Shown here piece by piece: positions 26,994 through 41,027 of a DNA stretch of 64,000 nucleotides. The notes beneath the pieces were generated by a model. It saw nothing but the letters and a program-made list of their open reading frames with translations, searched no databases and had not been told where the DNA came from. Position 1 is the first letter of the stretch, and every line of letters begins with the position of its first letter. The position numbers and the translations under genes were made by a program. This DNA comes from an uncultured Clostridia bacterium (lineage in GTDB: Bacteria > Bacillota > Clostridia > TANB77 > CAG-508), in NCBI GenBank assembly GCA_944386385.1, contig CALXAV010000005.1:1914-65913 (forward strand), written 5' to 3'.

Positions 26994-29900
26994 TTGAAAG
27001 TAAATAAGATATTAAAAATAGATGGAACACCACTAGATAAAACGCAGTTAGAAAATCATTTACAAAAAATTGCATCTTCACATAATTTAATAGGAAAATC
27101 AGCAAAAAATACTTATCCTGTACCACATTTATTAGAAAGTTTTAAAGTAATACAAGAAGTTTATAATTTATTAAATGAACATCTAAAATTAGGTATAAGT
27201 ATACACCCAGCTGGAGAATGGCTTTTAGATAATTTATATGTTATTGAAGAATGTGTGAAACAAATTGAGAAAGAACTAACTTTAAAGAGATATACAAGTT
27301 TTTTAGGGATTGCAAATGGTAAATATCAAGGTTTTGCAAGGATATATGTTTTAGCATCTGAAATAGTAGCTTATACAGATAATAGAATAGAAAGAAAAGA
27401 CTTAGAAAGCTATCTTGCAAGTTATCAAACTAAAAAGACACTAAGTATGGAAGAAATATGGAATATTGGAATGTTTCTTGAAATTGCAATAATCGAAAAT
27501 ATTAGAGAAGTTTGTGAAAAGATTTATATATCACAGATGGAAAAATATAAAGCAGAAAACATAGTAGAAAGATTAGTAGAAAATAAATCAAAACAGGAGC
27601 AAGTATTTAAAAATAATACTTTTAAAAAAGTAGAAAAAAATGTGTTAAATGATATGCAATATTCATTTGTGGAATATATGTCATATATATTAAAAAGATA
27701 TGGTAAAAAAGGGTATAGTTATTTAAAAGCATTAGAAGAAACAATTGAACTTACAGGAACAACTGTATCAGAAATAATAAAAAAAGAACATTTTGATATT
27801 GCTGTAAGAAAAGTATCAATAGGAAATAGTATTACAAGCATAAAAAAAATACAGAGAATCAATTTCCTAGAAATATTCGAGAAAATAAATGGAGTAGAAG
27901 AGTTATTAAAAAAAGACCCAAGTCATATATATGAAAAAATGGATAGTAAAACAAAAGAATATTATAGAAATAAGATAAAAGAAATATCTAAAAAAACAAA
28001 AATATCAGAGATATATATAACAAGGAAGTTACTAGAAATATCAAGTAAAAATGAAGGAAAAGGAAAGAAAAGCCATATAGGGTATTACTTAATAGATGAA
28101 GGAATAGAAGAATTATATAATATCTTAGGTTATAAAAAGAAAAGTTCTATTAACGTAAAAGAAAAAGTAAAAATCTATATTACTTTGGTATTAGTATTTA
28201 GTTTAGTACTTTCTTTTTATTTAGCAAATATGTTAAATAATAATATAAATAGTTGGGCTATATTAATAATTTCTTGGATGTTATTTTTTATACCAGCTTC
28301 GGAAATTGTAAATCAAGTAATATCATATGTATTAAGTAAAGTTGTTAAACCAAAGTTAATTCCTAAATTAGATTTTTCTAAAGGAATTGATAAAGAAAAT
28401 AGTACAATGGTAGTTATACCAACCATAGTAAACTCAAAAGAAAAAGTAAAAGAGTTAATTGAAAAATTAGAGGTATTTTACTTAGCTAATAAATCAGATA
28501 ATATATATTTTTGCTTACTTGGGGACTGTACTGAAAGTGACAAAAAAGAAGAAAGTTTTGATTTAGATGTGATAGAAGAAGGAAAAAAGGATATAGAAAT
28601 CTCAAATAGAAAATATGAAAGTAATAGCAAAATACCTATATTTAACTTTATATATAGAAAAAGAGAATGGAATGAAAAAGAAGGTTCATATCTAGGCTGG
28701 GAAAGAAAAAGGGGAATGCTATCTCAATTTAATGAATATTTGCTTGGAAATATAAGTAATCCATTTAGAGAAAATACAATTGAAAATTATGAAAACAGAG
28801 AAGAGATAAAAGAAGAATTAAAAAGTATTAAATATATAATAACATTAGATGCAGATACAGATTTAATATTAGACTCAGCTTTTGGACTAGTTGGTGCTAT
28901 GGCTCATATCTTAAATAGACCGGAAATTAATAAGAAAACAAATATTGTGACAGCAGGATATGGGATTATGCAACCAAGAGTAGGAATAAATTTAGAGGTA
29001 AGTAATTATAATCTATTTACAAAAATATTTGCAGGAGCAGGAGGAATAGACTCATATACAAATGCAATTTCAGATTTATATCAAGATAATTTTAAAGAAG
29101 GAATTTTCACAGGAAAAGGAATTTATGATTTAAAAGTATATTCTAAAGTATTAAAAGACCAGATACCTGAAAATACAGTTTTAAGCCATGATTTATTAGA
29201 AGGTTGTTATTTAAGGTGTGGACTGGTTTCGGATATAATGTTAATGGATGGGTATCCAACAAAATATAATAGTTTTATGAATAGATTATCTAGATGGATA
29301 AGAGGAGATGTTCAAATTGTAAAATGGATATCTTCGAAAAGACATCTAAATATATTATCTAGATATAAAATTTTAGATAATATAAGAAGAAGCTTATTAG
29401 AAATAAGTATAGTACTATCAGGAATTTTTACAATGATAATTGGAAAGATTTATAATAAAAGCGTTTATGCTATACTTATAGGATTACTTGTTGTTGCTAT
29501 AATTCCGTTTATATTAGAATTTTTAAATTATATAGTCTTTAAGAAAAATGGTGAGAAGAAGCAGAAAACATTTACACCCAAAATATCAGGAATAAAAGGT
29601 GGCTTGATAAGAGGAATATTAACTTTAGGATGTTTACCATATAAAGCATATATATCGTTAAAATCCATACTTACAAGCATATATAGAATTATTTTTAGTC
29701 ATAAACATTTATTAGAATGGACAACATCAGAGGAAGCGGAAAAACAAGCAAAGGAAGATTTATTTTCATATATAAGACAAATGATTGTGAATATTGTCTT
29801 AGGTTTTATTTGTATATTTAGTGGAAATATATTTGTAATTTGCCTTGGACTTTTATGGATAATGACACCTGTTTTTATGTGGTATATAAGTAGAAAGAAA

Positions 29901-32900
29901 AAAGAGGAGAAGAAGTTAGAAGAGTTAGATGTAGGAGAAAAAGAATATATAAAGGAAATAGGAAGAAGAACGTGGGAGTTCTTTAACACCTATTTAACTC
30001 AGGAAAATAATTATTTAATTACTGATAATTATCAAGAAGATAGGAAAGAAAAAATTGTTCCAAGAACTTCATCAACAAATATTGGGCTATCACTTCTTGC
30101 TGTAATTTCAGCAAATGACATTGGTTATATTGATAAAGAAAAAGCATTAGAATTATTAAGTAATATGTTATTAACAATAGAGAGTCTTCCAAAATGGAAT
30201 GGACATCTATATAATTGGTACCAAATCGAAACAAAAGAACCTTTAATACCAAGATATATATCAACTGTAGATAGTGGTAATTTTGTTGGCTATCTTTTTG
30301 TAGTTAAATCATTTTTGAAAGATATGTTAAATGAAGAAAAAGAGAAAAATCGAGAAACAGAAAAAAATGAGGATTTAAAAAATCTAATATCATTAGTGGA
30401 TAGATTAATAAAAAATACAGATTTCTCAGTATTATATAACAATGAATTACAAATATTTTCAATTGGATTTAATGTAGAAGAAAATAAGTTAACAGATTCA
30501 TATTATGATTTATTAGCATCAGAAGCAAGACAAGCAAGTCTTGTTGCAATTGCAAAAAAAGATGTACCATCAAAACATTGGAATAGTTTAAGTAGAACAA
30601 TGACAACTTTAGGAAAGTACAAAGGACTGGTTTCTTGGTCAGGTACAGCTTTTGAATATTTAATGCCAGATATAAATATACCTAGATACAAGGGAAGTCT
30701 TCTTGATGAATCTTGCAGGTTTATGATAATGAGCCAAAAAGAGTATAGTAAAAAATTAAATATACCTTGGGGAATTTCAGAAGCAGCTTTTAATGTAAAA
30801 GATTTAAAATCAAATTATCAATATAAAGCATTTGGAATACCATGGCTAGGACTTAAAAGAGGTTTAGCAGATGAACTAGTTGTATCTAGTTATGGAAGTA
30901 TTTTGGCAATTAATGATTGCCCGATAGAAGAAATTCAAAACTTAAAAAGATTAGAACAAGAAGGAATGTTCGAAAAGTTTGGATTTTATGAGTCAATAGA
31001 TTATACGCCAGAAAGGGTAGAAAAAGGAAAAACTTTAAGTATTGTAAAAACTTATATGGCACATCATCAAGGATTAATACTTCTTTCAATAAATAATTTA
31101 TTTAATAATAAAATACTTCAAAAGAGATTTATGGAAAATCCAGAAATAAAAGCAGTAAGTATATTATTACAAGAAACAATGCCAGAAACGGGAGTTATAA
31201 CTAAAGAAAAGAAAGAAAAAGTAGAAAAGTTAAAATATAAAGATTATGAAAATTATATAAAATTAGATTATAACAAAATAGATGAGAGGTTAATTACAGG
31301 AAATGTTATTTCAAATGAAGATTATGTTATAGCAATGAATCAAAAAGGAGAAGGTATAAGCAAGTATAAAGATATTTATATAAATAGATTCAAGCCGACA
31401 GATGATTATTCTCAAGGAATATTCTTTGTTATGAAAAATATAAAAACAAAAAGAATGTGGAGCTCTAATTATTTGTTTAATGACAAAAAAGAAAATTACA
31501 AAGTGAGTTTTATGCCAGATAAAAATGAACAAGAAATATTAGAGGGAAATATAAAAACAAAAATAAGAACAACAATTAGTTCAAATGAGCCAGTAGAATT
31601 GAGAAGGATAACATTAGAAAACCAAGGAAATGAAGAAGAAATAATAGAAGTAACAGTATATTTTGAACCTGTTTTATCAAAAAAAGAAGATGATTATGCA
31701 CACCCTGTATTTAATAATTTGTTTTTGAAAACTAAATATGATGAAGAAGTAAATAGTTTAATTATAAAAAGAAAGAAAAGAGAAAAGAATGCAAGAGAAA
31801 TGTATTTAATGACAGGGTTATCCACAAATTGTGAAACAATTGGGGATTTGGAGTATGAAATTAATGAGTCGAAGTTTATTGGAAGAGGAAATTTAGGAAT
31901 TCCGAACATGATACAAAATTCTATACCATTATCTAAGAAAATAGGTTTAGTGACTGAGCCGATTGTTGCTATGAAGAGAACTATTAAAGTAAAGCCACAA
32001 GATAAAGTTGACATTGATTTTATATTAAGTGTTGGAGAAGACGAAAAACAAGTAAAGCAAAATCTAGAAAAATATAAAATATATGAAAATGTGAAAAAAG
32101 AATTTGAGTTATCAAAAGCAAGAGTAGAAGCAGAAAGTAGATATTTAAGAGTAAAGGGAAAAGAAATTGCAATATACCAAAAAATATTGTCTTATATAAT
32201 TTTTGATAATCCAGTTAAATCAGAAAAATTAAAAAGAATAAATCCAGGAGAGTATAAACAAAGTAATCTTTGGAAATATGGAATATCAGGAGATTTACCA
32301 ATAATACTTGTTAAGATAAGAGACGTAAATGACGGGTATATTATAAAAGAGGTTTTAAAAGCATATGAATTTTTTAGAACGAAAAATGTAGATACCGAAA
32401 TTGTTATTTTAGATGAGGAAAGACATAGTTATGAAAATTATGTAAGAGAAGAAATAGAAAATGAGATATTAAATAGACATATGTCATATTTGAAAAATAT
32501 AAAAGGAGGAATTTTTACACTCGTAAAAGGAGAAGTAGATAAAAAGGATATATGTTTATTAGAATTAATTGCATGTGTTACTGTTGATGGAAGAAAAGGT
32601 GGATTAGAAAACAATATAAGAGACTTAGAAGAAGAGTATTTAGATAAATATAAGTTGGTCAATGAAAGTGAACAAAATGTAATAATGCAAGAGGATAATG
32701 ATGAAGATATAGATGTACTAAAAAATAGTGAAAGGCTAAAATACTACAATGAATATGGCGGATTTTCTGAAGACGGAAAAGAATATTTAATAAGAGTGAA
32801 TAAGGAAAATAGACTTCCAAGTGTTTGGTGTAATATCCTAGCAAATGAAAAATTTGGAACAGTTGTAACTGAAAATATGGGAGGATATAGTTGGTTTAAA

Positions 32901-35123
32901 AATAGTAAATTAAATAGAGTAACGGCTTGGGATAATAATCCAAGTTTAGATGTACCAAGTGAAATTATATATATGAAAGAGGAAAATGGAAAAGCATGGT
33001 CTTTAGGATTAAACCCAATGCCAGATAACAGAAACTATAATATTGTATATGGATTTGGATATGTAAAATATATACACAAAAGTTCTGGCATAGAGCAAGA
33101 AATAGAAACATTTGTGCCAAAAGAGGATGCATGTAAAGTGAGTATTTTGTGCTTAAAAAACACAACTCCAAATAAGAAGAAATTTAAATTATATTATTAT
33201 ATAAAACCAGTTCTTGGAGAAGATGAAATAAAAACAAATGGATATTTAAATGTAATTTTAGATGGAAATAATAATCTTGTATATGCTAAGAATTTATATA
33301 AAAGAGAAGAAGAAGATTATTTCATATATGTTTCTTGTAGCGAGAAAATAGAATCTTTTACAGGAGATAAAAACTCATTCTTAGGGGCAGGAGGACTTTC
33401 AAATCCACAAGGATTAAAAAAGGTAAGATTAAATAATGATTCTGGACTAGGTAAAAAGCCTTGTATGGCGTTTGTTGTTGAAGTAGAACTTGAAAGTTAT
33501 GCAAGTAAAGAGATATCTTTTCTCTTGGGAGCTGATGAAAGCTTAATTGATTGTAAAAATGTAGCTTATAAATATAGTAAATTAAATAATTGTAAACAAG
33601 AATTACAAATTACTAAAAATAATTGGAAAGATATTTTGGGAAGGTTACAAGTTTATACTCCTTTAGAGTCTACAAATATATTATTAAATGGTTGGATAAC
33701 ATATCAAACAATTGTAAGTAGACTTTTAGGAAGAAGCGGATATTATCAATCAGGAGGGGCGTTTGGATTTAGAGACCAACTTCAAGACACTTTAGGTTTA
33801 AAATATTTGGATACAAATATCATGAAAAATCAAATATTAAAACACAGTAGACATCAATTTTTAGAAGGAGATGTAGAACATTGGTGGCATGAAGAAACAA
33901 TGCGCGGTATCAGGACAAGATTTTCTGACGACTTACTATGGATTGCCTTTGTAACAATAGAGTATATTAAATTTACAGGAGATAGAAGTATATTAGATAT
34001 AGAAACGCCATATTTAAAGGGGGATGTATTACAAGAAGGACAAGATGAAAGATATGATAAATATATAGAGTCTGAAGAACAAGGAACTATATATAATCAT
34101 TGTATAAGAGCAATAGAGAAATCATTAAATTTTGGAGAAAATGGTCTTCCTAAAATTGGTTCTGGAGACTGGAATGATGGATTTAGTACTGTAGGTAATA
34201 AAGGTAAAGGTGAAAGTATTTGGCTTGGATTTTTCTTATATGATATTTTAGATAATTTTATTACTATATGTAATGAAAAAGGTGATGAAGAACTGGGAGA
34301 AAAATATGAAAAAATAAAACAAGAATTAAAAAAAGCATTAAATACAAAAGGTTGGGATGGAAGATGGTATAAAAGAGCATATATGGATGATGGAAATATA
34401 TTAGGTAGTATGGAAAATGAAGAATGTAGAATTGATAGTATTGCACAAAGTTGGGGTGTTATCTCAAATGCAGGTGATAATGATAAAAAATATATTTCTA
34501 TGGAAAGCTTAGAAAATCATTTAGTTGATAAGGAAAATGGAATTATTAAATTGTTAGACCCACCTTTTGAAAAAAGTAAATTAGAACCAGGTTATATAAA
34601 AGCATATCTACCAGGAGTAAGAGAAAACGGTGGACAATATACACATGCAGCGATATGGGTTATTATTGCAGAAAGCATGCTCGGTTTTGGAGATAAAGCA
34701 TTAGAGTTTTATAGAATGATTAATCCAATAGAACATTCAAGGACTAAAGATGCATGTAATAAATATAAAGTAGAACCATATGTTATAGCAGCAGATATTT
34801 ACGGACAAGGAAATCTTGTAGGACGTGGTGGTTGGACTTGGTATACAGGTTCTAGTAGTTGGTATTATAAAGCAGGGATCGAATATATTTTAGGATTAAG
34901 AATAGAAAATGGTTATATGACAATTGAACCTTGTATTCCAAAAGATTGGAAGGAATATCAAATACAATATAAATGGAAAGATAGTATTTATCATATTAAT
35001 GTTAAGAATCCAAATGGGAAGAATATGGGAGTTACTAAAGTACTTTTAGATAATAATGAAATAGAGAATAAAATAAAATTAGATGGTTCAAGAAAGATTT
35101 ATCATATAGAAGTGATATTATAA
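26994..35123 (+). CDS. Giant (2709 aa) cyclic beta-1,2-glucan synthase-like protein: membrane glycosyltransferase region plus GH94 glycosyl phosphorylase-like C-terminal region
   Basis: TTG start after AAGGAG and multiple TM segments. DADTD-type GT motif (IITLDADTD). C-terminal GH94-like stretches (GGAFGFRDQLQD, GDWNDG, GGQYTHAA) as in NdvB/Cgs and cellobiose/chitobiose phosphorylases. Confidence 0.8.
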   Translation: MKVNKILKIDGTPLDKTQLENHLQKIASSHNLIGKSAKNTYPVPHLLESFKVIQEVYNLLNEHLKLGISIHPAGEWLLDNLYVIEECVKQIEKELTLKRYTSFLGIANGKYQGFARIYVLASEIVAYTDNRIERKDLESYLASYQTKKTLSMEEIWNIGMFLEIAIIENIREVCEKIYISQMEKYKAENIVERLVENKSKQEQVFKNNTFKKVEKNVLNDMQYSFVEYMSYILKRYGKKGYSYLKALEETIELTGTTVSEIIKKEHFDIAVRKVSIGNSITSIKKIQRINFLEIFEKINGVEELLKKDPSHIYEKMDSKTKEYYRNKIKEISKKTKISEIYITRKLLEISSKNEGKGKKSHIGYYLIDEGIEELYNILGYKKKSSINVKEKVKIYITLVLVFSLVLSFYLANMLNNNINSWAILIISWMLFFIPASEIVNQVISYVLSKVVKPKLIPKLDFSKGIDKENSTMVVIPTIVNSKEKVKELIEKLEVFYLANKSDNIYFCLLGDCTESDKKEESFDLDVIEEGKKDIEISNRKYESNSKIPIFNFIYRKREWNEKEGSYLGWERKRGMLSQFNEYLLGNISNPFRENTIENYENREEIKEELKSIKYIITLDADTDLILDSAFGLVGAMAHILNRPEINKKTNIVTAGYGIMQPRVGINLEVSNYNLFTKIFAGAGGIDSYTNAISDLYQDNFKEGIFTGKGIYDLKVYSKVLKDQIPENTVLSHDLLEGCYLRCGLVSDIMLMDGYPTKYNSFMNRLSRWIRGDVQIVKWISSKRHLNILSRYKILDNIRRSLLEISIVLSGIFTMIIGKIYNKSVYAILIGLLVVAIIPFILEFLNYIVFKKNGEKKQKTFTPKISGIKGGLIRGILTLGCLPYKAYISLKSILTSIYRIIFSHKHLLEWTTSEEAEKQAKEDLFSYIRQMIVNIVLGFICIFSGNIFVICLGLLWIMTPVFMWYISRKKKEEKKLEELDVGEKEYIKEIGRRTWEFFNTYLTQENNYLITDNYQEDRKEKIVPRTSSTNIGLSLLAVISANDIGYIDKEKALELLSNMLLTIESLPKWNGHLYNWYQIETKEPLIPRYISTVDSGNFVGYLFVVKSFLKDMLNEEKEKNRETEKNEDLKNLISLVDRLIKNTDFSVLYNNELQIFSIGFNVEENKLTDSYYDLLASEARQASLVAIAKKDVPSKHWNSLSRTMTTLGKYKGLVSWSGTAFEYLMPDINIPRYKGSLLDESCRFMIMSQKEYSKKLNIPWGISEAAFNVKDLKSNYQYKAFGIPWLGLKRGLADELVVSSYGSILAINDCPIEEIQNLKRLEQEGMFEKFGFYESIDYTPERVEKGKTLSIVKTYMAHHQGLILLSINNLFNNKILQKRFMENPEIKAVSILLQETMPETGVITKEKKEKVEKLKYKDYENYIKLDYNKIDERLITGNVISNEDYVIAMNQKGEGISKYKDIYINRFKPTDDYSQGIFFVMKNIKTKRMWSSNYLFNDKKENYKVSFMPDKNEQEILEGNIKTKIRTTISSNEPVELRRITLENQGNEEEIIEVTVYFEPVLSKKEDDYAHPVFNNLFLKTKYDEEVNSLIIKRKKREKNAREMYLMTGLSTNCETIGDLEYEINESKFIGRGNLGIPNMIQNSIPLSKKIGLVTEPIVAMKRTIKVKPQDKVDIDFILSVGEDEKQVKQNLEKYKIYENVKKEFELSKARVEAESRYLRVKGKEIAIYQKILSYIIFDNPVKSEKLKRINPGEYKQSNLWKYGISGDLPIILVKIRDVNDGYIIKEVLKAYEFFRTKNVDTEIVILDEERHSYENYVREEIENEILNRHMSYLKNIKGGIFTLVKGEVDKKDICLLELIACVTVDGRKGGLENNIRDLEEEYLDKYKLVNESEQNVIMQEDNDEDIDVLKNSERLKYYNEYGGFSEDGKEYLIRVNKENRLPSVWCNILANEKFGTVVTENMGGYSWFKNSKLNRVTAWDNNPSLDVPSEIIYMKEENGKAWSLGLNPMPDNRNYNIVYGFGYVKYIHKSSGIEQEIETFVPKEDACKVSILCLKNTTPNKKKFKLYYYIKPVLGEDEIKTNGYLNVILDGNNNLVYAKNLYKREEEDYFIYVSCSEKIESFTGDKNSFLGAGGLSNPQGLKKVRLNNDSGLGKKPCMAFVVEVELESYASKEISFLLGADESLIDCKNVAYKYSKLNNCKQELQITKNNWKDILGRLQVYTPLESTNILLNGWITYQTIVSRLLGRSGYYQSGGAFGFRDQLQDTLGLKYLDTNIMKNQILKHSRHQFLEGDVEHWWHEETMRGIRTRFSDDLLWIAFVTIEYIKFTGDRSILDIETPYLKGDVLQEGQDERYDKYIESEEQGTIYNHCIRAIEKSLNFGENGLPKIGSGDWNDGFSTVGNKGKGESIWLGFFLYDILDNFITICNEKGDEELGEKYEKIKQELKKALNTKGWDGRWYKRAYMDDGNILGSMENEECRIDSIAQSWGVISNAGDNDKKYISMESLENHLVDKENGIIKLLDPPFEKSKLEPGYIKAYLPGVRENGGQYTHAAIWVIIAESMLGFGDKALEFYRMINPIEHSRTKDACNKYKVEPYVIAADIYGQGNLVGRGGWTWYTGSSSWYYKAGIEYILGLRIENGYMTIEPCIPKDWKEYQIQYKWKDSIYHINVKNPNGKNMGVTKVLLDNNEIENKIKLDGSRKIYHIEVIL

Positions 35124-35128
35124 TTTGC

Positions 35129-35157
35129 TTGATAATTCACATAAAAAGGAGTATAAT
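35129..35157 (+). promoter_or_regulatory. Near-consensus sigma-A promoter (TTGATA-17-TATAAT) directly upstream of the GC-rich island
   Basis: TTGATA at 35129-35134, a 17-nt spacer, TATAAT at 35152-35157. The GC-rich sequence begins ~8-10 nt downstream. Confidence 0.6.
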
Positions 35158-35164
35158 AAGAAGT

Positions 35165-35855
35165 ATAGCTACTTTGGTAGCTTGGCAGAAAAAGGTGCTT
35201 TAGAGAAAGGACGATGATGGAAGTACCTAATAGTGTTAGGCGGAGCAAGATTGCTCCCAAGTTCAAGTTCGACAATCCGACCAGGCGGAACCATCTGAGC
35301 AAGAAAGGTGTAAACGGTTGGGGCAACCAAAGGTTTACGAGCGATGATTGTCCGAAGGCCTTTAACGGAATCTTTATTCGTGAAGAAAAAGATTCCGAAG
35401 ATGAGACCGTGACTCATCCCTCGTACCTAATAGTCGCGTCCACAAAACCGTGGGTGCCTTTTGGCCTACGAGGCTGGAATGCTTGTGATGAGCTTGACCT
35501 CATGACGAGGAAGCTCTGGATACAGGAGCATCTCAGCGTCAGATGCGCAAGGGAGGAGGACCTTAAAGGACTGAAGGTGCCCAAAGGAAAGTTCTGGCTT
35601 GCAGAAACTTCCTTTGACATCGACGAGAACGGCGCCCACTTCGGTATGAAGTACGTCGACGATGGAGTAGTCAAGCTAGCCGAACTATGTCGTGTTCATG
35701 GTTCGGAAGCTGTTGAGACCGAAGGAGACGTCGGTGCTGGACTTCTGGCAGTGGTGACCCTTGATACAATCGTCATCAACGACTTAAAAGTACCGTCGTT
35801 GTGGGGCTAAGATCCACTAAGGCACTTTTTTGTGGGAGCTCCGTTGGGGCTCCCT
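35165..35855 (+). ncRNA. Candidate large (~690 nt) highly structured RNA of unassigned class, possibly dual-function
   Basis: ~50% GC body in a ~27% GC genome, coinciding with a promoter-to-3'-hairpin unit. It has at least 14 local hairpins, including 10-bp perfect, 10-bp with U.G, and 13/15-bp stems, plus a possible 15-bp closing helix 35189-35203/35817-35831 with two G.U pairs. See findings. Confidence 0.5.
35214..35810 (+). CDS. Alternative reading of the island: 198-aa ORF of unknown function with foreign (GC3 ~55%) codon usage
   Basis: The frame is open 35181-35810. By manual count, ~27 stop trinucleotides all fall out of frame. First-position G is ~37% and third-position A ~16%. The SD (AAAGGA) is only 2-5 nt from the ATG pair. 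No family recognised. Confidence 0.4.
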   Translation: MMEVPNSVRRSKIAPKFKFDNPTRRNHLSKKGVNGWGNQRFTSDDCPKAFNGIFIREEKDSEDETVTHPSYLIVASTKPWVPFGLRGWNACDELDLMTRKLWIQEHLSVRCAREEDLKGLKVPKGKFWLAETSFDIDENGAHFGMKYVDDGVVKLAELCRVHGSEAVETEGDVGAGLLAVVTLDTIVINDLKVPSLWG

Positions 35856-35883
35856 ACTTAATTTAAAAAAGGAAAGGTTAATT

Positions 35884-36879
35884 ATGAAAAGTAGAGATAT
35901 AAACCAACTATTAGATGGGCTGAGAAAAAATATGTTGGAATTTTCAGGTACAGAAGAAGATAAAGAAATAAAAATGGCATTATATGTAGCTATAGAGCTT
36001 GCTAAAAGTAAATCGTTTGATGAAAGATATTATCTTGGGAGTGACCAATTAGCAAAAAGAATAGTAAAACAAGCAAGAGAAGATAGTAAAAGTGAAAATT
36101 TCGAAAGAACATTAAACAAAAGAAAGCTTATATGCATTTCTATAGCAAATACATATAAAAGAATATTAAATAACCTATGTATAGATTGTGAAGTATTTAG
36201 AGTGATGAATTCGGACCATTTATATAATATTGTAACATTAAGTAATGGAAGAAAAATATGTGTTGACGTGCAAGAGGATTTATACCGTATTCATACTGGA
36301 AGAACATTAAATCATTTTTATGCATTGGGAGAAATAGACTTTTTACCAGATGACAGACTAATACCCATGCTGGTAGAATTAGGTTATACTAAAGATAAAG
36401 ATAGTTATAATGATAGAGATAATAAAATAGAAGCTGTTAGACAGAAAGTAGCAGACCTTACGCCTGATGAGGCTTTAGATGTTATATTTAGTTCTGATGA
36501 GCTTTTCCAAGGACTAGAAGAACTGGAAACTTCAGAAGCATACAGTTATTATTATGCTTTAAGGAGAGATACATTAGATAGAAAGAGATTCAAAAGAACA
36601 TATCAATTCCCATGTGCTAGATTAGACGATAATGGTGAACCTAAAGATTTCACCTTTTGTATATATGCAGATACATATGATTATAGAACAGTAAAACCAT
36701 ACTTATACTCTGAAAAAGAAGGTAGAATAATGCTATGTGATTTAATAACACTGGATAAATTACAAGATGATGGATTAAAATTAGGAAGATTAGGAGTAGA
36801 AACTAGGATTAGAAAGCTAAGAAGATACATGAAGCAAGCAGTAAAGGCAGGTAAGAGAAGAGAGGAAGAAACAAGATAA
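35884..36879 (+). CDS. Hypothetical protein, possible transglutaminase-like (Cys-His-Asp) fold
   Basis: RBS GGAAAGG before the ATG at 35884 (the track start at 35830 lies inside the island hairpin). Ordered C (LICISIANTY), H (SDHLYNIV) and D (ICVDVQED) resemble the TGase-like core. Weak call. Confidence 0.6.
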   Translation: MKSRDINQLLDGLRKNMLEFSGTEEDKEIKMALYVAIELAKSKSFDERYYLGSDQLAKRIVKQAREDSKSENFERTLNKRKLICISIANTYKRILNNLCIDCEVFRVMNSDHLYNIVTLSNGRKICVDVQEDLYRIHTGRTLNHFYALGEIDFLPDDRLIPMLVELGYTKDKDSYNDRDNKIEAVRQKVADLTPDEALDVIFSSDELFQGLEELETSEAYSYYYALRRDTLDRKRFKRTYQFPCARLDDNGEPKDFTFCIYADTYDYRTVKPYLYSEKEGRIMLCDLITLDKLQDDGLKLGRLGVETRIRKLRRYMKQAVKAGKRREEETR

Positions 36880-36880
36880 T

Positions 36881-36920
36881 AGACATACAAAAATTTGTTT
36901 TGTATGTCTATTGACTTTTT
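36881..36920 (+). terminator. Intrinsic terminator
   Basis: 12-bp stem AGACATACAAAA / TTTTGTATGTCT followed by ATTGACTTTTT. Confidence 0.65.
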
Positions 36921-38217: not shown

Positions 38218-39522
38218 ATGAAGGCTAATGAACCTTTAGCTTTTCGTATGAGACCAAAAACTTTAGATGATTATGTTGGTCAAGAACATGTGTTAGCAAA
38301 AGATAAAGTATTATATAGAACAATTAAAGCAGATAGATTATCAAGTATTATATTATTTGGACCTCCTGGATGTGGAAAAACATCACTTGCAAGAGTAATT
38401 AGTGAAACAACTAAGTATAAATTTTATAAGATAAATGCAGTAACGGCAGGAGTTGCAGATATTAAAAGAGTAATTGAAGAAACTAAAAACTTTATGCTAA
38501 ATCCAACAGGAAAAAGTATATTATTTATTGATGAGATTCATAGATTTAATAAATTACAACAAGATGCACTTCTTCCATATGTAGAAAATGGAACAATTAT
38601 TTTAATCGGAGCAACAACTGAAAATCCTTATTTTGAGGTAAACAAAGCTTTGATTTCAAGGTCAATGGTAATTAAATTGAACCCATTAACAGAGGAAAAT
38701 ATATTTCAAATATTAAAAAATGCTATTACAAAAAAAGAGGGACTTGGAGAATATAATATAAAAATAGATGATAGTACATTAAGAAAATTAGCAGTTATTA
38801 GTAATGGCGATGTAAGAACAGCTTTAAACGGTTTAGAGGTTGCAACACTAACTACTGCAATGTCAGAAGATGGGTATATTCATTTGACAGATGATATAAT
38901 TAAAAACAGTGTTCAAGAAAGAAAAGCCGTATTTGATAAAAATGGTGAAGAACATTATGATAATATAAGTGCATTTATAAAATCAATGAGAGGCTCTGAC
39001 CCAGATGCAGCAGTATTTTATTTAGCAAGAGCATTAAATGGTGGAGAAGATCCAATGTTTTTAGCAAGAAGAATTACAATATGTGCATCTGAAGATGTTG
39101 GTATGGCAAATCCAAATGCTTTAGTTGTAGCAAACAGTGCTATGCAAGCTGTTCATATGATAGGAATGCCAGAAGCAAGAATATTGCTTGCAGAAGCGGC
39201 AGTATATGTAGCAACATCTCCAAAATCTAATGCATCTTATATGGCAATTAATAAAGCGTTAGAAGATGTAAAAAATAAAGATACAGGAGAAGTTCCTATG
39301 CATATTAGGAATGCACCAATAGAGCAGATGAAGAACTTAGGATATCACGAAGGATATTTATACCCACATGACTTTCCAGGGCACTATGTAGAGCAACAGT
39401 ATCTTCCAGATAAAATGGTTGGAACTAAATATTATGATGATAGTGATATACCAGAGAAAGTAGAAAAACAAATAAAAGGTCCAAGAAAAGTAAAAAAAGA
39501 AGAAAAACAAAATAAAAATTAA
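38218..39522 (+). CDS. rarA: Replication-associated recombination protein A (RarA/MgsA AAA+ ATPase)
   Basis: MRPKTLDDYVGQEH...ILFGPPGCGKTSLA...FIDEIHRFNKLQQDALLP...ATTENPYFEV... and a MgsA C-terminal domain. Confidence 0.9.
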   Translation: MKANEPLAFRMRPKTLDDYVGQEHVLAKDKVLYRTIKADRLSSIILFGPPGCGKTSLARVISETTKYKFYKINAVTAGVADIKRVIEETKNFMLNPTGKSILFIDEIHRFNKLQQDALLPYVENGTIILIGATTENPYFEVNKALISRSMVIKLNPLTEENIFQILKNAITKKEGLGEYNIKIDDSTLRKLAVISNGDVRTALNGLEVATLTTAMSEDGYIHLTDDIIKNSVQERKAVFDKNGEEHYDNISAFIKSMRGSDPDAAVFYLARALNGGEDPMFLARRITICASEDVGMANPNALVVANSAMQAVHMIGMPEARILLAEAAVYVATSPKSNASYMAINKALEDVKNKDTGEVPMHIRNAPIEQMKNLGYHEGYLYPHDFPGHYVEQQYLPDKMVGTKYYDDSDIPEKVEKQIKGPRKVKKEEKQNKN

Positions 39523-40477: not shown

Positions 40478-40814
40478 AACAGAAGGAGGTAGCGACATCT
40501 TAACGATATATTACTACCTCCCAGGACACTTGTCCTTTTCTGTCCATTGAATAAAAATGTAAAAGGGCTGTAAGAGAGCTGCGTAGACCATCTCTAACAG
40601 GCAGTATTCCTCCTTTTCCGGATGAGGAATTTATAACTATATACGTCAGCTTTAGAATCCGTACATAGCCATAACCAATTACAGACAATGGATAAAAATA
40701 TAATGCCTCGGTTGCAAACTTGTGCAACCCTTACATAGAAGATGATAACAAAAGATAGTGTGAATGTCAATGTTTTCCATAAAGGATGAAGGGAAAAAGA
40801 TAATATTAAAGATA

Positions 40815-40960
40815 TAAAAAGGAGGTGCTCTCGCCAAAGCACCTCCAATACCCAAAAGCGAATATGCTCCTAGGTATCCGATAACGGAGAATTTAAAAGT
40901 TGTACGTAGAGTGAGTACAAAAGAGGAGAGGAACTAATTAAATTCTCCGTTAGTCGGTAA
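40815..40960 (-). ncRNA. Candidate ~145-nt sRNA with a CU-rich internal loop
   Basis: Minus-strand terminator GGAGGTGC-N10-GCACCTCC plus TTTTT (40846-40816). It is preceded by a 17-bp bulged helix (40878-40894/40940-40957) enclosing UUCCUCUCCUCUUUU and a 6-bp hairpin. No clear promoter, so it may be a 3' UTR-derived RNA of 41028-41510. Confidence 0.35.
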
Positions 40961-41027
40961 AAACAATAGTTGCAATTTGCAACCTAAAGTCTATTTTATT
41001 ATAAAATGATTTTTTTGTCAAATATTA

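Follow-up and report, generated by a model that had tools for sequence, protein, structure and literature searches.

A GC-rich island in an AT-rich Clostridia genome carries a resident gene of a new protein family, with apparent selection on the fold of its mRNA

Here we describe a GC-rich island in the genome of an uncultured Clostridia bacterium (GenBank assembly GCA_944386385.1, contig CALXAV010000005.1, positions 1,914 to 65,913 of the forward strand). This whole stretch of 64,000 nucleotides is called the window, and all coordinates refer to it unless a related locus is named. The GC content at 35181-35820 is 50-52% vs 27-30% in the window background, and one plus-strand open reading frame (ORF) covers the island. 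An earlier note, made from the sequence alone, asked whether this ORF belongs to a dual-function RNA or to a very recent foreign gene. We found that the ORF is a real gene whose product belongs to a new protein family. It is a resident gene in a hypervariable slot, not a newly arrived one, and each of its allele classes is under purifying selection. We consider it fairly probable that the island is a self-contained monocistronic unit, i.e., a real resident gene whose composition and hairpins reflect selection on the fold of its own mRNA. The foreign-looking composition and the hairpin saturation would then be explained by a second selective layer, one that acts on the mRNA itself.

The mechanism we propose is as follows. 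Synonymous positions would be recruited to build a GC-rich, compact mRNA fold. The leader just 5' of the ribosome binding site (RBS) would pair with the 3' untranslated region (UTR), tying the ends of the message together. A message built in this manner may be compact and resistant to ribonucleases, and its rare G/C-ending codons may tune translation down.

A new protein family

The coding sequence (CDS) was delimited as follows.

35217-35810, plus strand: CDS of 197 codons followed by TAA, the founding member of a family of mostly beta, cytoplasmic proteins of ~200 aa with an isoelectric point (pI) of ~6

The frame is free of stop codons between TAG at 35178-35180 and TAA at 35808-35810, so that one plus frame does span the GC-rich body, as the earlier note had claimed. 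Most of the other counts in that note were reproduced. There are 27 stop trinucleotides in 35214-35807, none of them in frame and 13 and 14 elsewhere; G occupies 37.9% of first codon positions (~37% claimed); and A accounts for 37/33/16% of positions 1/2/3 in the first 100 codons, exactly as stated. The chance of 198 open codons, given as ~1e-4, is ~3e-5 by our calculation (island composition, stop probability of 0.051 per codon), which makes the argument slightly stronger. Some details required correction. The ORF has six Trp codons instead of seven. The conserved start is not ATG 35214 but the second ATG, at 35217, and the product has 197 aa instead of 198: ATG 35214 is replaced by ACG in the related locus L001 and by ATT in L016, and gene callers also report 197 aa. 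Since the true start is the second ATG, the sequence AAAGGA lies 5 nt before it, and the Shine-Dalgarno spacing, described before as poor, is normal.

Atypical composition and codon usage are regarded as signs of recent horizontal transfer, and both are evident here. The GC content of the ORF is 0.50 vs 0.27-0.30 around it. The GC content at third codon positions (GC3), estimated earlier at ~55%, is 0.56. The window has 40 other ORFs with a length of 150 aa or more; these are A/T-ending, with a GC3 of 0.10-0.20. Unusual codons are over-used indeed: CGN/AGG and G/C-ending codons exceed the norm 5- to 100-fold (AGG, CGG, CTG, CTC, GTC, CCG, and GGC). An index similar to the codon adaptation index (CAI), built on the other long ORFs of the window, equals 0.22 for the ORF and 0.60-0.81 for those ORFs.

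Substitution patterns are those of a protein-coding gene. Over 6 kb aligned with L001 (90.6% DNA identity) the ORF has 79 substitutions, distributed as 19/7/53 among the three codon positions, and no indels; the same pattern is seen in the flanking genes (46/19/142 in the upstream GH94 gene and 24/10/60 in the downstream gene orf331). The numbers of nonsynonymous (dN) and synonymous (dS) substitutions per site between these two copies of the ORF are 0.055 and 0.60, a pace roughly like that of the neighboring genes. Within allele classes dN/dS is 0.09-0.17 (Nei-Gojobori method, five close pairs).

A word-indexed search among 5.8 billion proteins returned a single cluster, 90% identical to the product, and the contigs of this cluster share the gene order of the window. 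A full HMMER scan of 1.84 billion representative proteins added six diverged full-length relatives of 201-214 aa with 34-47% identity, and two profile searches added further ones. One more match from the representatives, the 2644-aa protein P0017, was discarded as spurious, being due to MBG repeats. The resulting family includes ~25 intact homologs of 197-214 aa with identity down to 33%. The earlier note had named stops or frameshifts in homologs as the sign of a pure non-coding RNA (ncRNA); the frame is intact in all ~25, and all indels among them are whole codons (alignments A3 and A7, 13-16 sequences). The family shares the motifs NGW-NQ-FT, HP-Y, GW, R-A---D, PKGKFWL, Y--G-IK, and AGILAVV-L. 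One copy, P0016 (147 aa), lacks ~40 internal residues, diverges at its C-terminus, and may be decaying. Together with a loss of the CDS in the related locus L036 (see below), it suggests that the gene is dispensable.

The predicted structure is confident. AlphaFold2 with 13 family sequences gave a mean predicted local distance difference test score (pLDDT) of 89.7 and a predicted template modeling score (pTM) of 0.84 for a mostly beta fold with three short helices; the single-sequence run gave a pLDDT of 28.6, so that only the alignment-based run is informative. The product has no signal peptide and no membrane segment, and its grand average of hydropathy (GRAVY) is -0.40. The claim that it belongs to no recognizable protein family holds after sequence, profile, and structure searches. 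There was no match in Pfam, PHROGs, NCBIfam, PADLOC, or the PDB by sequence and profile, and Foldseek against the PDB and BFVD found no fold relative of the predicted structure (best E-values 0.12 and 0.09, respectively; TM-scores below 0.25).

These data decide against a pure ncRNA in which the frame has stayed open by chance through GC richness. Such an idea has some appeal: GC-rich structured RNAs in an AT-rich genome are stop-depleted, the protein has no recognizable family, and the long opposite-strand ORFs of the earlier note do exist, with minus-strand frames open for up to 93 codons. However, it is incompatible with the third-position bias, the dN/dS of ~0.1, the codon-multiple indels, the frame kept intact down to 33% identity, the confident fold, and the low chance of the open frame. 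The coding possibility is thus firmly supported and a pure ncRNA is excluded, its probability being practically nil. Minus-strand ORFs were also rejected as the product. In one of them the wobble position coincides with that of the plus frame, and codon-position bias alone cannot exclude it, but none exceeds 93 codons, and it is the plus frame that is conserved throughout the family and has the predicted fold. No curated RNA family of Rfam 15 (OLE, ROOL, GOLLD, raiA, HEARO, and riboswitches included) was matched at the gathering score anywhere in the window. With the threshold relaxed to E = 10, the surroundings of the island gave chance matches to miRNA and snoRNA models only (E-values 0.12-3.5).

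Structure of the message

The ORF lies within a compact transcription unit with the following elements.

35129-35157, plus strand: sigma-A/sigma-70-type promoter, TTGATA-17 nt-TATAAT, 11 of 12 consensus matches (promoter scan)
35167-35182, plus strand: 5'-terminal stem-loop, AGCTAC-TTTG-GTAGCT
35189-35203, plus strand: 5' arm of the closing helix, AAAAAG-GTGCTTTAG, directly 5' of the Shine-Dalgarno sequence
35195-35211, plus strand: leader motif GTRCTTTAGAGARAGGA, nearly invariant, containing the Shine-Dalgarno sequence
35204-35211, plus strand: Shine-Dalgarno region, AGAAAGGA, with a spacing of 5 nt to the start codon
35817-35831, plus strand: 3' arm of the closing helix, located in the 3' UTR, CTAAGGCAC-TTTTTT
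35834-35864, plus strand: intrinsic terminator, a hairpin GGGAGCTCC-GTT-GGGGCTCCC (35834-35854) followed by a T-rich tail (terminator scan)

Related loci are labeled L001 and so on; a contig scan for more of them was made with the alignment of orf331, as that of the ORF family is too variable for this purpose. We compared the shell of the unit across the flanks of ~20 family members. The shell (promoter, leader, and terminator) is conserved much more strongly than the coding sequence. Both promoter hexamers and their spacing are kept upstream of every family member examined, across allele classes, and transcription would start near 35164. Scans of IMG/VR and the JGI metagenomes with the leader motif gave only chance matches inside unrelated genes.

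Base pairing in the shell is supported by covariation. In the 5' stem-loop 88.8% of cells are paired over 15 lineages and two pairs switch between CG and UA; its covariation score is 0.343 and does not exceed 0.07 if the partners are slid by 1-3 columns. The arms 35189-35203 and 35817-35831 pair with each other in the minimum free energy (MFE) fold of the whole transcript and close the message by a helix of 9-15 bp. The energy of this duplex is -25 kcal/mol vs -14 +/- 2.8 kcal/mol for shuffles, and closing duplexes are better than shuffles in 13 of 15 lineages. The core of 9 bp, formed by the 35195-35203 arm, is 98.9% paired in the ten lineages that align in register, compared with 24-48% when slid. 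One pair switches between A-U and G-C, and four pairs have U.G variants, a pairing allowed in the plus-strand RNA alone. The pairing is retained although the position of the 3' arm varies among lineages from overlapping the stop codon to +9 nt from it. In some lineages the spacer between the Shine-Dalgarno sequence and AUG pairs additionally with the last codons; the conserved arm stops just 5' of the Shine-Dalgarno sequence. All lineages have a hairpin at the terminator position, and its stem sequence is changed among them.

The coding sequence itself also folds better than expected. On either strand the fold of the whole region is far more stable than that of dinucleotide shuffles (z = -4.9 and -6.8). 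A second comparison swaps synonymous codons within each amino acid and leaves protein, codon usage, and GC content fixed. The native CDS folds better than such shuffles in 10 of 10 lineages (z from -2.25 to -4.84), and the same procedure applied to four control genes of the window gave z from -0.1 to -1.1. The consensus energy of RNAalifold for 11 lineages is -51.0 vs -38.5 +/- 3.5 for shuffled codon alignments (z = -3.6; none of 100 as low). Three hairpins stand out within the CDS.

35309-35339, plus strand: intragenic hairpin 1 over codons V-N-G-W-x-N-Q-x-F-T; 12 bp by RNAalifold, 82% paired in 11 lineages
35581-35616, plus strand: the strongest local hairpin of the copy in the window, over the codons for PKGKFWLAETSF, the peptide motif with the highest conservation; present in MFE and centroid folds
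35729-35756, plus strand: intragenic hairpin 2 over codons D-V-G-A-G-L-L-A-V-V; 11 bp by RNAalifold, 76% paired, several pair types per position

Hairpins 1 and 2 are found again at homologous positions in other lineages and show synonymous compensatory changes, e.g., from GTA..TTT to GTG..TTC. The hairpin at 35581-35616 accounts for the spurious miRNA-model matches mentioned above.

Elevated GC content is a property of every allele of the ORF (0.34-0.51 vs 0.25-0.29 in the flanks). Third-position changes polarized with an outgroup include 33 from GC to AT and 40 from AT to GC. Per site, GC is changed to AT at a rate of 0.124 in the ORF and 0.235 in the flanking genes (Fisher's test, p = 0.0015), and the reverse rates are alike (0.120 and 0.108). 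Thus the GC richness and the hairpins look maintained, rather than inherited from a donor and decaying. The earlier note had reasoned that protein-level purifying selection together with disrupted stems would indicate an ordinary horizontally transferred gene; purifying selection was found, but the stems are intact.

Several observations weigh against selection on the mRNA fold as the explanation. L029, L031, and L062 have only a weak closing helix or none. Accessibility of the RBS changes inconsistently when the 3' end is removed: its unpaired probability drops in 4 of 12 lineages (partition function, full-length vs truncated transcripts). The folding excess is stronger on the plus strand in five of six lineages, but the window is the exception, with z = -5.6 on the minus strand vs -3.7 on the plus strand. 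The spread of GC3 among alleles (0.20-0.58) implies that the pressure differs in strength. The allele class of the window taken alone has nine GC-to-AT vs three AT-to-GC changes, which is compatible with slow decay, and the parsimony polarization is visibly biased in AT-rich flanks. Finally, codons as rare as those of the ORF are odd for a gene behind a near-consensus promoter.

Hairpins and GC richness might also be a DNA-level by-product of a recombination hot spot, through GC-biased gene conversion or palindrome-rich substrates. The slot clearly undergoes allelic exchange as well as gene gain and loss, and both strands fold better than shuffles. At the same time orf331, which lies in the same hypervariable segment, has ordinary GC content; the folding excess is larger on the plus strand in most lineages; the U.G pairs of the closing helix would turn into C.A mismatches in a DNA cruciform or on the opposite strand; and the borders of the structured region are exactly those of the transcription unit. 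GC-biased gene conversion as the main cause was rejected in view of the native GC content of orf331 and the strand-biased folding excess, and we regard any explanation of this kind as very improbable.

The hypervariable slot and the origin of the gene

The order of genes in the slot is the GH94 gene, the ORF, orf331 (transglutaminase-like), a gene of an HD protein, and ruvA. It is kept in nearly all family members with readable context. The genomes that carry the family are metagenome-assembled genomes labeled "uncultured Clostridia bacterium" or "Clostridium sp." from metagenomes of animal-gut type. No relatives of the ORF outside this clade were found among the 1.84 billion representative and 5.8 billion proteins, and none in the GTDB representatives searched with the ORF or in protein scans of IMG/VR, INPHARED phages, and PLSDB plasmids. 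The family is therefore confined, within these collections, to a single clade of genus level, whose members are uncultured gut Clostridia with very AT-rich genomes.

The partner gene shares the variability of the ORF.

35884-36876, plus strand: orf331, 331 aa, the downstream partner gene, hypervariable along with the ORF

The backbone around these two genes is well conserved. Protein identity between lineages is 91-97% for the HD protein, 84-96% for RuvA, and 82-93% for the C-terminus of the GH94 protein, with dN of 0.03-0.08 and dS of 0.4-0.8. In contrast, identity is 33-50% for the ORF and 35-67% for orf331, and orf331 has a dN of 0.44-0.47 to other classes. At least seven allele classes of the ORF can be distinguished, with mutual identity of 29-55%, P0023 representing the seventh. 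The DNA identity between the window and L019 illustrates the borders of the segment: ~90% up to 35190, 41-55% over the ORF segment, which spans exactly 35191-35865, 45-70% over orf331, and ~90% again at 36916. Because the ORF diverges within classes at about the pace of its neighbors while the classes are far apart, the allele classes are much older than the species backbone. The slot has the signature of allelic turnover or diversifying selection. As the ORF co-varies with the transglutaminase-like orf331 and its alleles turn over, there is a hint that the protein may serve a conflict or a partner-specific function.

These results speak against the suggestion of a very recent foreign gene. 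The same slot is occupied in at least seven deep allele classes of congeneric species, relatives outside the clade or in phages and plasmids were not found, and third-position G/C is lost at half the per-site rate of the flanks. Patchy or variable location, another sign of recent transfer, was not observed either, the exceptions being L036, L029, and L002.

In L036:4840-4992, homologous to 35124-35883 of the window, the whole CDS is gone and a 150-nt spacer precedes orf331. Three elements of the unit are retained in the spacer: TTGATA...TATAAT as promoter, ATAGC-ttatt-GGCTAT as 5' hairpin, and TAGGAGTCC-ttttta-GGGCTCCTA as terminator. Such an empty shell would give a transcript of ~90 nt or an attenuating leader for orf331-HD-ruvA. 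The state of L036 is most simply read as a loss of the CDS, because the identity of its GH94 gene nests it among the ORF-bearing lineages. In the window the terminator is followed after only 28 nt by the start of orf331, with no promoter there; for this reason orf331 and the downstream genes probably depend on read-through from the promoter of the ORF. The shell retained in L036 fits this view.

A complete unit (promoter, hairpin, CDS, and terminator) occurs in a different genomic context at L029:270-1148 and in L030. In L029 an unrelated minus-strand gene lies upstream, and the contig end downstream reads as the 3' part of a minus-strand tRNA gene; ARAGORN found no tRNA at this contig end. 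Since a complete copy sits elsewhere in L029, the whole unit appears to be able to relocate.

Two further arrangements were noted. L061-L064 (4295-4852) have an extra unrelated gene of 185 aa (GC content 0.35) between the GH94 gene and the ORF and a remnant TATAAT/hairpin-like sequence directly after the GH94 gene; judging by such contigs, the slot accumulates variable genes. In L002:875-1885, a metagenomic contig of a sister species, a DDE transposase (DDE_Tnp_1) is located ~560 nt upstream of the ORF and replaces the end of the GH94 gene seen elsewhere.

A foreign origin as such deserves separate consideration. The gene could stem from a GC-richer donor, either by repeated imports out of an unsampled pool via the conserved promoter and terminator flanks or by one old import that ameliorates unevenly. 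This would suit the extreme composition and codon usage, the wide range of GC3 among alleles, allele classes far older than the species backbone, the second site of the unit in L029, insertion sequences or extra genes within the slot in some strains, and the lean towards GC-to-AT among the polarized changes in the window's class. However, the protein, viral, phage, and plasmid collections contain no relative outside the clade. The equally hypervariable orf331 has native composition (GC3 of 0.17), the promoter and leader are native-looking and conserved, and third-position G/C is retained twice as well as in the flanks. Donor composition also leaves the better folding relative to synonymous shuffles unexplained. 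We consider a foreign origin of this kind unlikely.

The remaining alternative is a bifunctional RNA, i.e., an mRNA that is also a structured RNA with its own job (a regulator, scaffold, or sponge), its fold being kept for that job. It is favored by structure conserved beyond the protein constraint, by a covarying helix that closes the ends as in many stable structured RNAs, by codon adaptation so poor that translation seems not to be maximized, and by the promoter/hairpin/terminator shell persisting without a CDS in L036. On the other hand, Rfam offers no match beyond chance even at E = 10, the internal hairpins are only partly conserved in position (76-82% paired) and absent in some alleles, DNA identity of 41-55% between classes is hard to square with a precise tertiary RNA architecture, and the strong constraint on the protein makes the peptide the primary product. 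The dual-function RNA of the earlier note accordingly stands in part: structure is conserved at synonymous sites and in the UTRs. We give a bifunctional RNA, with a role beyond that of a message, a small though appreciable chance. We give the same small chance to the whole 0.7-kb transcript being a bifunctional molecule, i.e., a compact, end-closed, GC-rich structured RNA that is held against the strong AT mutational bias and also encodes a protein of new fold. Within the bifunctional view there are two possibilities: the RNA fold has a cellular role, or the gene arose within a small RNA unit that already existed, an idea raised because the shell of promoter, 5' hairpin, and terminator survives empty in L036. 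If a bifunctional RNA were the case, the island would be a natural bacterial example of CDS-wide selection on RNA architecture.

Related systems and neighboring features

With a resident gene under selection on its mRNA fold as the preferred reading, the closest experimentally studied analogue is the hbs mRNA of Bacillus subtilis. In this mRNA a 14-bp interaction of the 5' UTR with the 3' UTR modulates leader cleavage by RNase Y, and the 5' structure together with the bound ribosome blocks RNase J1 (Braun, Durand & Condon 2017, PMC5737220). Both cases concern a small monocistronic gene of a Firmicute with a structured 5' UTR, a Shine-Dalgarno sequence near the structure, and a helix between the UTRs, that of the island being 9-15 bp long, conserved, and covarying. 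However, hbs has native codon usage and codes for a known protein that is conserved universally, and nothing comparable to the CDS-wide GC enrichment and the synonymous-site structure of the island is described for it.

Another message with pairing between its ends is the icaR mRNA of Staphylococcus aureus, in which the Shine-Dalgarno region is paired with the 3' UTR (Ruiz de los Mozos et al. 2013, PMC3868564). Here too the 3' UTR pairs with its own 5' leader and adjoins the RBS. The difference is that the icaR motif pairs with the Shine-Dalgarno sequence itself and blocks translation, whereas the arm in the island pairs with 9 nt just upstream of it.

In the hok family of type I toxin mRNAs the 3' end pairs with the 5' end, which results in a compact, stable, and inert message (fold-back inhibition). 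The message of the island resembles them in being compact, highly structured, and closed end to end. Its product, however, is a soluble beta-rich protein of 197 aa, in contrast to the hydrophobic peptides of less than 60 aa of hok type, and the promoter scan revealed neither an antisense RNA gene nor an antisense promoter in the island. A type I toxin-antitoxin system, defined by a small hydrophobic toxin and a cis antisense RNA, is therefore not what we observe, given the length of 197 aa, the GRAVY of -0.40, and no transmembrane segment. A switch of icaR or hok type, in which the 3' end shuts the RBS, was considered and left out of the model, as the accessibility of the RBS is inconsistent across lineages.

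RNAIII/hld, SgrS/SgrT, and SR1/SR1P are dual-function RNAs in which short peptides are encoded within mostly non-coding RNAs with known base-pairing targets. The island shares with them a structured transcript that carries a translated frame; unlike in these RNAs, 85% of the transcript is a well-constrained gene of 197 codons.

The locus also resembles the candidates of screens for GC-rich intergenic regions (IGRs), as it was flagged by a long GC-rich stretch in an AT-rich genome. In such a screen about a third of "unknown IGRs" proved to be protein-coding (Stav et al. 2019, PMC6429828). The usual false positives are unannotated ordinary genes, whereas the gene in the island is compositionally aberrant and its aberration looks selected.

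Protein genes in GC-rich "intergenic" islands and 5'/3'-UTR pairing are thus already known. What is new is a protein family for which the searched databases contain no relative in sequence or fold, and a hypervariable two-gene slot in a conserved backbone, a pattern that usually marks conflict or partner-specific systems. New as well is CDS-wide GC enrichment, with GC3 four times the genomic norm, apparently held by mRNA-structure selection across deep allele classes. The GC-rich-island signature of structured RNAs can mark a protein gene with a structurally selected message, and pipelines for ncRNA discovery would mis-call or discard such a gene. The island is an unusually clean natural case for the recruitment of synonymous sites to mRNA folding, although the very narrow taxonomic range limits the reach of the finding.

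The partner gene orf331 has invariant Cys84, His112, and Asp128 (alignment A4). Some members of its family have weak, sub-threshold Pfam matches (Transglut_core, E = 0.0034; DUF553, 0.0056; Transglut_core2, 0.11), and PADLOC gave no match for orf331, as for the ORF. The gene is tandem-duplicated, with one or two paralogs, in L019, L022, L025, L031, L032, and L061. In more distant Clostridia (L039-L043) the genes orf331-HD-ruvA are present without the ORF. We also considered that the ORF product could be a spore-coat substrate of a transglutaminase; this idea is disfavored, as the promoter appears to be of the vegetative sigma-A type.

The gene upstream of the island, at 26994-35123, is a giant ORF of 2,709-2,710 aa (listed with a TTG start) with Glycoamylase and GH94 (GH94/GT84-type) domains, conserved at 82-97% throughout the clade. 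Its product is similar to a cyclic beta-1,2-glucan synthase or a glucan phosphorylase, and its size is unusual for a small AT-rich Clostridium. Downstream of ruvA, the ORF at 38218-39522 (434 aa) has RuvB_N, AAA, and MgsA_C domains, and its product looks like a recombination ATPase of RarA/MgsA type rather than a canonical RuvB. In several related contigs its homolog is called as two ORFs (291 and 148 aa), which suggests a frameshift or an assembly error in those contigs. Rfam gave no match up to E = 1 at 40478-41027, a region of 550 nt with a moderately raised GC content of 0.35-0.37 and no convincing ORF. It contains several strong hairpins, e.g., GGAGGTAGCGAC...CTACCTCC and GGAGGTGCTCTCGCCAAAGCACCTCC, and may be a further structured RNA or a decayed gene.

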